Source: an uncultured virus (IMG/VR IMGVR_UViG_3300037418_000253) (lineage: Duplodnaviria; Heunggongvirae; Uroviricota; Caudoviricetes). Taken from it: a stretch of 64,000 nucleotides of DNA. The notes beneath the pieces were generated by a model. The model did no database searches, was not told the origin of the DNA, and was given only the letters and a program-made list of their open reading frames with translations. Position 1 is the first letter of the stretch, and every line of letters begins with the position of its first letter. The stretch lies in the IMG/VR virus record IMGVR_UViG_3300037418_000253, one strand, 5' to 3'. Positions 1 through 9,226 of the stretch are shown in pieces. The position numbers were made by a program, and so were the translations under genes.

Positions 1-276
1 ACCCGCGTCCGTTCATTTCAAGCATACAGTCGATGTACAGCCATGTCCATCATTTTAAAGCGTGTCTTGCGAATTACTCAAACTACCGGCCGTTCTGTTC
101 CTAAGTGGCCAACTCGCGTAACTCAGACAGTTACGAGTGCGTACTCAGCGCAAAGCGCCTCGTACTCTGCATCAATGTTATCAGCATTTATTGTTTTGAA
201 CCTGTTTTAGGTCTCTTGCTCAAAGACCGGCTGCGCTCATATACCATTCATCAACGTCGAAACCAATGACTACCCC
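1..276 (-). ncRNA. ssrA: tmRNA (3' end truncated by window edge); tag ORF at 185..123 encodes ADNIDAEYEALCAEYALVTV*
   Basis: Minus strand starts GGGGTAGTCATTGGTTTCGAC (tmRNA-type 5' end) and leaves the window at GGACGCGGGT (start of T-arm). Resume-codon context AATAAAT-GCT; the tag stop codon lies in a hairpin. Confidence 0.9.
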
Positions 277-603: not shown

Positions 604-607
604 AAAG

Positions 608-679
608 TACCCCTACCAGGAGTCGAACCCGGCTCTACGGTTCCGAAGACCGTCGTGTTATCCGATACACTATAAGGGC
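608..679 (-). tRNA. tRNA-Arg(TCG)
   Basis: Cloverleaf; anticodon arm ACGGT-CT TCG GA-ACCGT. Confidence 0.9.
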
Positions 680-680
680 A

Positions 681-1005
681 TGCCCCAGTTTAACGTGTGC
701 TTGGGGGTACCACGAGTTATTTCTGCGACGGAGGTAACTGCCCTCTGGCCATTCCTGTAGGTTTGCGGGCCTCCCGCCTAACTACAGTTAGTCGCTCGTT
801 AAATTTTGCGGTTTGGAGGTGACTAATCTCGACACCGCTATAAGTTCACCAGACATGCTAGCACATGCTTAGTCTCTGGTGCCAAGGCGTTCACGGGCTA
901 TAACCTTGGATTAATCAGCCTGCTAGAGCTGTCCCGTTCCACATTCACAGGCTGGAATCCAGTTCCATTTACTTTCCACCTTCTGAATTCAAGTGGGGAA
1001 TTCAT
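681..1005 (-). ncRNA. Large ornate structured ncRNA (candidate compact GOLLD-like RNA)
   Basis: About 10 stems plus several loop-loop complementarities, lying between two tRNAs; no credible ORF. Confidence 0.65.
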
Positions 1006-1007
1006 AG

Positions 1008-1084
1008 AGGCACTGGAGGGAATCGAACCCTCTAAGGCGAGAAGTTTTGCAGACTTCCGGTGGAAAACCATCCACAACAGCGCC
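1008..1084 (-). tRNA. tRNA-Cys(GCA)
   Basis: GGCGCTG/CAGTGCC-T (U73 Cys determinant); GAAGT-CT GCA AA-ACTTC. Confidence 0.9.
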
Positions 1085-9121: not shown

Positions 9122-9139
9122 ATGTATTTACTTGTTACG

Positions 9140-9226
9140 CGGAAGGTGGGGGAGTCGAACCCCCAAGGGGTTTCATCCCTCGCTTGTTTTCAAGACAAGT
9201 TCCGTCGCCAATCGGATTGACCTTCC
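9140..9226 (-). tRNA. tRNA-Ser(TGA)
   Basis: CTTGT-CT TGA AA-ACAAG; long variable arm; G73. Confidence 0.93.

Follow-up and report, generated by a model that had tools for sequence, protein, structure and literature searches.

An uncatalogued, covarying RNA family with multiple pseudoknots between tRNA genes of large Streptomyces phages

Precedents and genomic setting

Phage T4 makes two RNAs, rnaC and rnaD (the species 1 and 2 RNAs), that are processed from a tRNA precursor. In the T4 record they are annotated as 'small, stable RNA' beside tRNA-Arg and on the tRNA strand. The passages of 10.1101/2024.12.08.627333 that deal with GOLLD and ROOL describe them as phage or prophage RNAs, often near tRNA islands, whose function is unknown and whose folds abound in pseudoknots and kissing loops, GOLLD commonly exceeding 800 nt and being conserved in its 3' region. 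The element described here is a new RNA family in a niche of this known kind.

The window, the whole stretch of 64,000 nucleotides analysed here, is derived from a large Streptomyces phage, and its nearest relatives are Stanwilliamsviridae phages of ~125-135 kb. Structural and replication genes are followed by a long tRNA array, all on the minus strand. A preliminary description of the window had placed an RNA between tRNA-Cys and tRNA-Arg at 681-1005; by ARAGORN tRNA calling in the window the element fills the whole inter-tRNA gap, 680-1006 (-) or ~327 nt, with 2-3 nt separating it from tRNA-Cys and 3 nt from tRNA-Arg(tcg). Most other tRNA neighbours in this array abut, and no comparable element lies between them. 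The RNA strand of the element is the minus strand, since G.U cells outnumber A.C cells by 107 to 14 when pair cells are read as minus-strand RNA, and all 21 tRNAs of the window are encoded on this same strand. Eight of nine promoter-like sites are also on the minus strand and none is found within the element. Pfam searches on 17, and then on 38, window ORFs identified a C5 DNA methylase, HNH, replication genes and structural genes and no RNA-related partner gene, and the neighbouring genes thus provide no functional clue.

The phage encodes its own tmRNA as a separate gene at window 1-276 (-), beyond tRNA-Arg(cct), and it corresponds to the tmRNA annotated near the element in relatives. The tmRNAs that ARAGORN calls in phages Byblos and Ankus align to this stretch as far as the T-arm, and ARAGORN and Rfam miss the window's gene because it is truncated at the window edge, where its 3' end is cut.

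Several side observations concern other parts of the array. The tRNA-Cys(gca) at 1007-1084 (-) is atypical, being 78 nt by ARAGORN and annotated as 72-73 nt in relatives; it is under the Rfam tRNA threshold, and among Rfam models tRNA-Sec fits it best, with a sub-threshold 34 bits. The 246-nt gap at 361-606, flanked by tRNA-Arg(cct) and tRNA-Arg(tcg), contains no called tRNA. The T-arm-like motif GGAnUCGAACC occurs three times on its minus strand (near 481-491, 533-544 and 570-580), and these sites may be decayed tRNA genes; relatives have a CDS or other tRNAs at this position. The tRNA-Ser(tga) called by ARAGORN at 9139-9226 (-) scores 54 bits on the Rfam tRNA-Sec model, above the gathering threshold, and is probably merely a tRNA with a long variable arm. 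In phage Beuffert (L005, 1195-1266 (-)) an Rfam tRNA match of 35 bits in the tRNA-His/tRNA-Tyr interval is unannotated in the record.

Comparison with known RNAs identified no relative of the element. Rfam 15 at gathering scores gave 19 hits in the whole window, all of tRNA type; at E<=10 on 350-1650 nothing was found inside 680-1006, and at E<=5 on 12 homologous loci nothing in the element exceeded chance noise (e.g. sR53 with E=2 in L017). No covariance-model match was obtained to RNase P, SRP, 6S, Y RNA, riboswitches, self-cleaving ribozymes or any other Rfam 15 family. GOLLD, which we take to be among the 4227 Rfam families scanned, and ROOL gave no match either. The preliminary description had left the choice between a minimal GOLLD-like 3' domain and a new class, and without any Rfam match membership of GOLLD or ROOL fails and the new class stands. 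The element is a new, covarying, pseudoknotted RNA family.

The likeness to GOLLD and ROOL is confined to context and style, that is, a phage origin, adjacency to tRNAs, pseudoknots and kissing-type loops. In contrast to these RNAs, the element is far shorter (core ~130 nt; 327 nt here; 167-444 nt in relatives), is found in cultured lytic actinophages and matches no Rfam model. With T4 rnaC and rnaD it shares a location within a tRNA cluster, on the tRNA strand and directly beside a tRNA, but host phylum, size and fold all differ. The covariance models R1 and R2 (the latter describing the 3' domain) reached <=3.9 and <=6.4 bits, respectively, on the T4 region with filters off, indicating no homology. 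The T4 RNAs are the closest precedent in context and are not homologous. Like tmRNA, the element strings several H-type pseudoknots together and shares its array with tRNAs, but neither a tRNA-like domain nor a tag frame is present in 680-1006 (ARAGORN, Rfam), and with the phage's own tmRNA being a separate gene this identity was rejected. An intron-bearing tRNA or tRNA remnants were likewise rejected, given that the gap holds no ARAGORN or Rfam signal.

No description of the element was found in the literature, in a search that ran outside the sequence files of PMC10690425 (supplementary files 1, 2 and 4). Three of the DNA-virus candidates in the text portion of this catalogue of phage structured RNAs, 42, 50 and 76 nt long, have a Streptomyces host, and a fragment of the element could be among them. 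A term search of preprint 10.64898/2026.09.22.753630 returned no mention of Streptomyces. One genome announcement (PMC5764925) annotates the region with only tRNAs and a tmRNA, and the section of a second that concerns such genes (PMC12509530) lists only tRNAs and a tmRNA.

Core and lineage-specific modules

The element is modular. Its core consists of five or six helices locked by the pseudoknot PKa, the covarying pseudoknot PKc and a candidate pair of complementary loops, and attached to this core are lineage-specific modules, namely pseudoknots in the leader and at the terminus and a 3' domain that contains a further one (Table 1).

Table 1. Features of the element and its flanking tRNA genes; coordinates are plus-strand numbers of the window, the RNA being the minus strand.
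Feature	Position	Strand	Evidence or remarks
Whole inter-tRNA RNA element	680..1006	(-)	tRNA calls; homologous gaps in 18 phage loci; BLAST
tRNA-Cys(gca), upstream of element	1007..1084	(-)	ARAGORN; no CCA encoded at 3' end
5' leader, probable H-type pseudoknot	976..1004	(-)	L1 998-1004/984-990; L2 991-996/976-981
Hairpin P1	963-967/953-957 (953..967)	(-)	followed by conserved joining strand 938-952
Conserved core, ~130 nt	808..937	(-)	R1 134.2 bits; pair counts; 32 invariant columns
PKa	933-937/893-897	(-)	partner strand within Hb loop
Ha	927-931/916-920	(-)	closes 6-nt loop 921-926
Ha loop, CUAGCA on RNA	921..926	(-)	invariant in 36/36 unique cores
Hb	904-909/882-887	(-)	loop contains PKa partner
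Hc	875-881/847-853	(-)	core helix
PKc	869-874/821-826	(-)	covaries; partner strand within He loop
Hc2	864-867/854-857	(-)	closes 6-nt loop 858-863
Hc2 loop, UGCUAG on RNA	858..863	(-)	invariant in 36/36 unique cores; candidate kissing partner of 921-926
Hd	834-838/808-812	(-)	core helix
He	827-830/816-819	(-)	loop contains PKc partner
Accessory 3' domain, three-way junction	715..795	(-)	covariation; R2 91.1 bits at 671-798 (-)
S1	791-795/725-729	(-)	3' domain helix
S2	782-787/755-760	(-)	3' domain helix
S3	773-777/765-769	(-)	3' domain helix
Conserved segment GAAUGGCC	747-754	(-)	within 3' domain
S4	742-745/731-734	(-)	3' domain helix; loop engaged in PK3
PK3, S4 loop with 3' tail	735-739/715-719	(-)	many compensatory variants
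Terminal H-type pseudoknot	683..714	(-)	T1 711-714/694-697; T2 702-706/683-687; ends 3 nt before tRNA-Arg
tRNA-Arg(tcg), downstream of element	607..679	(-)	ARAGORN and Rfam

Covariation in the core was assessed on an Infernal alignment of 32 distinct sequences, with 500 shuffles and slid-partner controls. Paired cells amounted to 85.9% versus 72.3% in the shuffles, and the covariation score was 0.352 versus 0.133 shuffled, with none of the 500 shuffles as high, and 0.045-0.125 for slid partners. As the sequences come from related phages the shuffle controls overstate the significance, and the slid controls are the fairer comparison. Helix Ha is paired in 100% of its cells with double changes at four of its five pairs. 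An anchor-based parse recovers Hb, Hc and Hd in every one of 53 loci (36 unique cores), each helix complete although its sequence differs between loci. This 100% pairing arises by construction, because each was picked as the best helix; the anchor-based count of 98.1% paired is inflated for the same reason. The stem of He covaries freely, and the idea that He mimics an anti-Shine-Dalgarno sequence was rejected on this ground.

The pseudoknots differ in how their pairing is evidenced. PKc changes in a compensatory manner (U-A 22 / C-G 8; also G-C to U-A and C-G to U-A) and is found as GACUA/UAGUC, GACCA/UGGUC, GAUUA/UAAUC and UACCA/UGGUA and in a register-shifted 4-bp form. PKa is compatible across all sequences, with a one-base bulge in some, and is nearly invariant. 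The Ha loop and the Hc2 loop are fully complementary to each other and neither ever varies, so that their pairing is plausible from sequence complementarity and may take place within one molecule or between molecules. For PKa and for this loop-loop pairing the near-invariance of the sequences leaves no covariation proof. It should be noted that 24 of the 32 invariant columns of the core were fixed by the search pattern in those sequences that were derived by pattern.

Covariation is seen also in the leader stem, the three-way-junction domain and the terminal pseudoknot. In the 3' part, 89.2% of the cells are paired compared to 73.1% when shuffled, and the covariation score of 0.452 exceeds both the shuffled value of 0.202 (0/500) and the slid controls (0.041-0.117). 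Double changes are seen at two of the four pairs of T1, and the variants of T2 include CCCCA/UGGGG and GCGUGAG/CUCACGC. Every cell of leader stem L1 is paired, and five of its seven pairs show double changes, while L2 has four conserved pairs and no covariation. At the place of P1 the relatives have a hairpin of other sequence, as judged by inspection without a formal count.

Model R2 matches in 18 of 43 sources, each time adjoining a core, and in two of five whole phage genomes. Its absence from the three other core-bearing phages, known from whole genomes, identifies the 3' domain as an optional accessory. A further variation was observed in L013, L010 and similar relatives, in which an extra linker module of ~40 nt is inserted between core and 3' domain. 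This module resembles an H-type pseudoknot, occurs in relatives of the tRNA-Asn type and is absent from the window.

The ornate, multi-pseudoknot RNA of the preliminary description is borne out by covariation across related phages, which is strong in the core and evident also in the 3' domain and leader. Fifteen pairings had been listed, and all 15 complementary segment pairs are present in the sequence, but only ten are supported. Among the ten stems, eight are upheld by covariation in relatives: 683-688/701-706 corresponds to T2, with five pairs on the RNA strand, and the others are S1, S4, S2, S3, Hd, Hc and Hb with the boundaries given in Table 1. The stem 916-922/948-954 competes with the fully paired Ha, and 712-716/795-799 is not conserved. 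Two of the five long-range matches were also retained, gacta 821-825 with tagtc 870-874 as PKc and acggg 893-897 with cccgt 933-937 as PKa. The remaining three were abandoned: taactg 735-740 had been matched with 785-790 but the S4 loop covaries with 715-719 instead, tgtgct 696-701 had been matched with 860-865 but this loop is complementary to 921-926 instead, and tttaacg 689-695 with 797-803 is confined to the window's own sequence. Features beyond that list are Ha, Hc2, He, PK3, T1, P1, the leader pseudoknot, the loop match 921-926/858-863 and the minus RNA strand.

The preliminary description had named three outcomes that would count against it. One of these, a lack of covariation, is clearly contradicted by the results above, but another was obtained: on the RNA strand the folding energy is no better than that of shuffled sequence. 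Minimum-free-energy folding of the whole gap gave z = -0.84 with 20 of 100 shuffles equally good, in a nested test to which pseudoknots are invisible. The values by part were -0.52 for the core, -0.72 for the 3' domain and -0.26 for the leader, and the opposite strand folded better than the RNA strand (z = -2.84).

Distribution among Streptomyces phages

The phages that carry the element are large, lytic and infect Streptomyces; by record taxonomy they belong to the Stanwilliamsviridae, subfamilies Loccivirinae and Boydwoodruffvirinae, and the element is specific to them. All 83 records matched by blastn with the gap were Streptomyces phages, and the three invariant motifs were present in all 20 BLAST-derived sources (19 loci and the window). 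A motif-pattern search identified 22 IMG/VR contigs and 11 metagenome contigs, and all 11 of the latter were confirmed by R1 with 115-153 bits. When the loop-A anchor was left out, the pattern recovered the identical 22 IMG/VR contigs and no loop variant. The strict pattern had no match in 185,579 prokaryote species represented by one genome each. The relaxed pattern yielded seven matches in prokaryote genomes, in five cyanobacterial MAGs, one Actinomycetota MAG and one archaeon, and these are regarded as chance matches since all fail R1 (<=7 bits).

Each of five whole phage records contains a single full-length R1 match, and in the 64-kb window the sole match is at 790-976 (-) with 134.2 bits. 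The record nearest to the window (G001), a 30-kb fragment with an estimated completeness of 24%, gave no R1 match, an outcome that carries no weight.

The placement of the copies is uniform, always flush between two tRNA genes of the same strand, while the tRNA context differs between lineages. In phages of the Loccivirinae type the gap measures 237-444 nt and extends from tRNA-Cys to tRNA-Asn(gtt) or tRNA-Arg(tcg). In phages of the Boydwoodruffvirinae type a shorter form is located between tRNA-Ala(ggc) and tRNA-Lys(ctt), and the minimal form of 167-170 nt is this complete gap. The distance from the closing helix to the next tRNA is 4-6 nt. Host strains given in the phage records are S. griseus ATCC 10137, S. 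lividans and S. viridochromogenes.

Proposed mode of action and alternative explanations

Maturation of tRNAs involves RNase P at the 5' ends and endonucleolytic 3' trimming where CCA is not encoded. We consider it likely that the locus is an uncatalogued modular gene for a multi-pseudoknot ncRNA that would be co-transcribed with the tRNAs, excised by the tRNA enzymes and active in trans as a stable RNA. Transcription would take place within a polycistronic tRNA precursor. The 5' end would be made by an RNase Z-type cut at the 3' end of the CCA-less tRNA-Cys upstream and the 3' end by RNase P acting on the downstream tRNA, and the structured termini may then protect the ends against exonucleases. 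The released RNA would act in trans, probably within the phage takeover of translation and tRNA metabolism. The many invariant bases in loops and junctions suggest a specific partner or activity, and candidate partners are a protein, an RNA, a ligand or a second copy of the RNA itself.

A more specific proposal is that the core is an active machine, either a putative small self-assembling particle of a new kind or an RNA that, as a new ribozyme or by binding a ligand or factor, might reprogramme the tRNA and translation biology of the host or defeat tRNA-targeting defences. We put this forward only tentatively.

One form of such activity would be an RNA-only particle, in which putative intermolecular pairing of the two invariant loops generates dimers, rings or cages. 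None of the 36 unique cores departs from CUAGCA and UGCUAG in these loops, whereas the adjoining stems vary freely, a pattern consistent with this explanation. The portions of 10.1101/2024.12.08.627333 that concern assembly describe the cages of GOLLD and ROOL as held by kissing loops, some of which had earlier been read as intramolecular, and cages, trimers and filaments are reported as possible for RNAs of <200 nt in the relevant part of 10.64898/2026.07.01.735769. However, an intramolecular two-stack fold closed by the loops is equally conceivable, the invariance of the loops also fits protein recognition or catalysis, and the element has no homology to GOLLD, ROOL or manA. Self-assembly is on balance rather unlikely.

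That the element is a purely cis-acting processing spacer, which insulates the tRNAs, guides RNase P/Z or blocks exonucleases and of which the excised piece is discarded, appears improbable. A spacer would be expected to lie flush between tRNAs with structured ends, as the element does, and the gain and loss of modules between lineages (R2 in 18/43 sources and 2/5 genomes) could also be accommodated. The 32 invariant columns and three tertiary contacts maintained over two subfamilies and two tRNA contexts are nevertheless far beyond the needs of a spacer, and elsewhere in the array most tRNA neighbours adjoin directly, with no such element between them.

HDV-like ribozymes have been reported beside phage tRNAs, and a self-cleaving ribozyme or other catalytic RNA could assist in cutting the tRNA precursor. 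The compact, interlocked pseudoknot fold and the many invariant unpaired bases would be typical of a ribozyme. The order of the strands, however, with a 5' strand, a hairpin and a second stem with a back-pairing loop, differs in our reading from the nested double pseudoknot of the HDV-like topology. Moreover, no Rfam ribozyme family matches and the cuts are already explained by host RNase P/Z, leaving catalysis a very improbable explanation.

The plus-strand gene for a small protein that the records of phages Muntaha and Wakanda annotate deserves hardly any credence. A 'hypothetical protein' CDS of 43 aa is placed in the gap in these two records (L002 1544-1675 (+) and L007 643-774 (+)), and the antisense reading of an invariant motif gives ATG. 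Yet the antisense ORFs range from 5 to ~45 aa with frames that diverge within a few residues, and the window's copy has only 5 codons (855-872 (+)). The substitutions keep base pairs and not codons, and the excess of G.U over A.C cells noted above points to an RNA on the other strand. The annotation can accordingly be corrected: the 43-aa CDS is probably spurious, and apart from it current annotations show only tRNAs and a tmRNA at this location.

A decayed remnant of a tRNA or tmRNA could be suspected from the location in a tRNA array with a tmRNA gene nearby, as could a site acting at the DNA level, for example an origin or one that binds a protein. Both can practically be dismissed since ARAGORN and Rfam detect no tRNA or tmRNA signal inside the element, the real tmRNA is found at window 1-276, and the strand-specific tolerance of G.U indicates an RNA and not a DNA site.

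Structured RNAs adjacent to phage tRNAs recur, as in T4 rnaC/rnaD, GOLLD and ROOL, and their role is a long-standing question. The element described here is small, with a core of ~130 nt, and unusually interlocked, and unlike most such RNAs it is present in dozens of isolated phages. Since the host strains named above are commonly used and harmless laboratory Streptomyces, genetic and structural work is directly feasible. If the core is an active machine, its presence in >80 cultured Streptomyces phages would give the ornate RNAs found in phage tRNA islands their first model system open to genetics.
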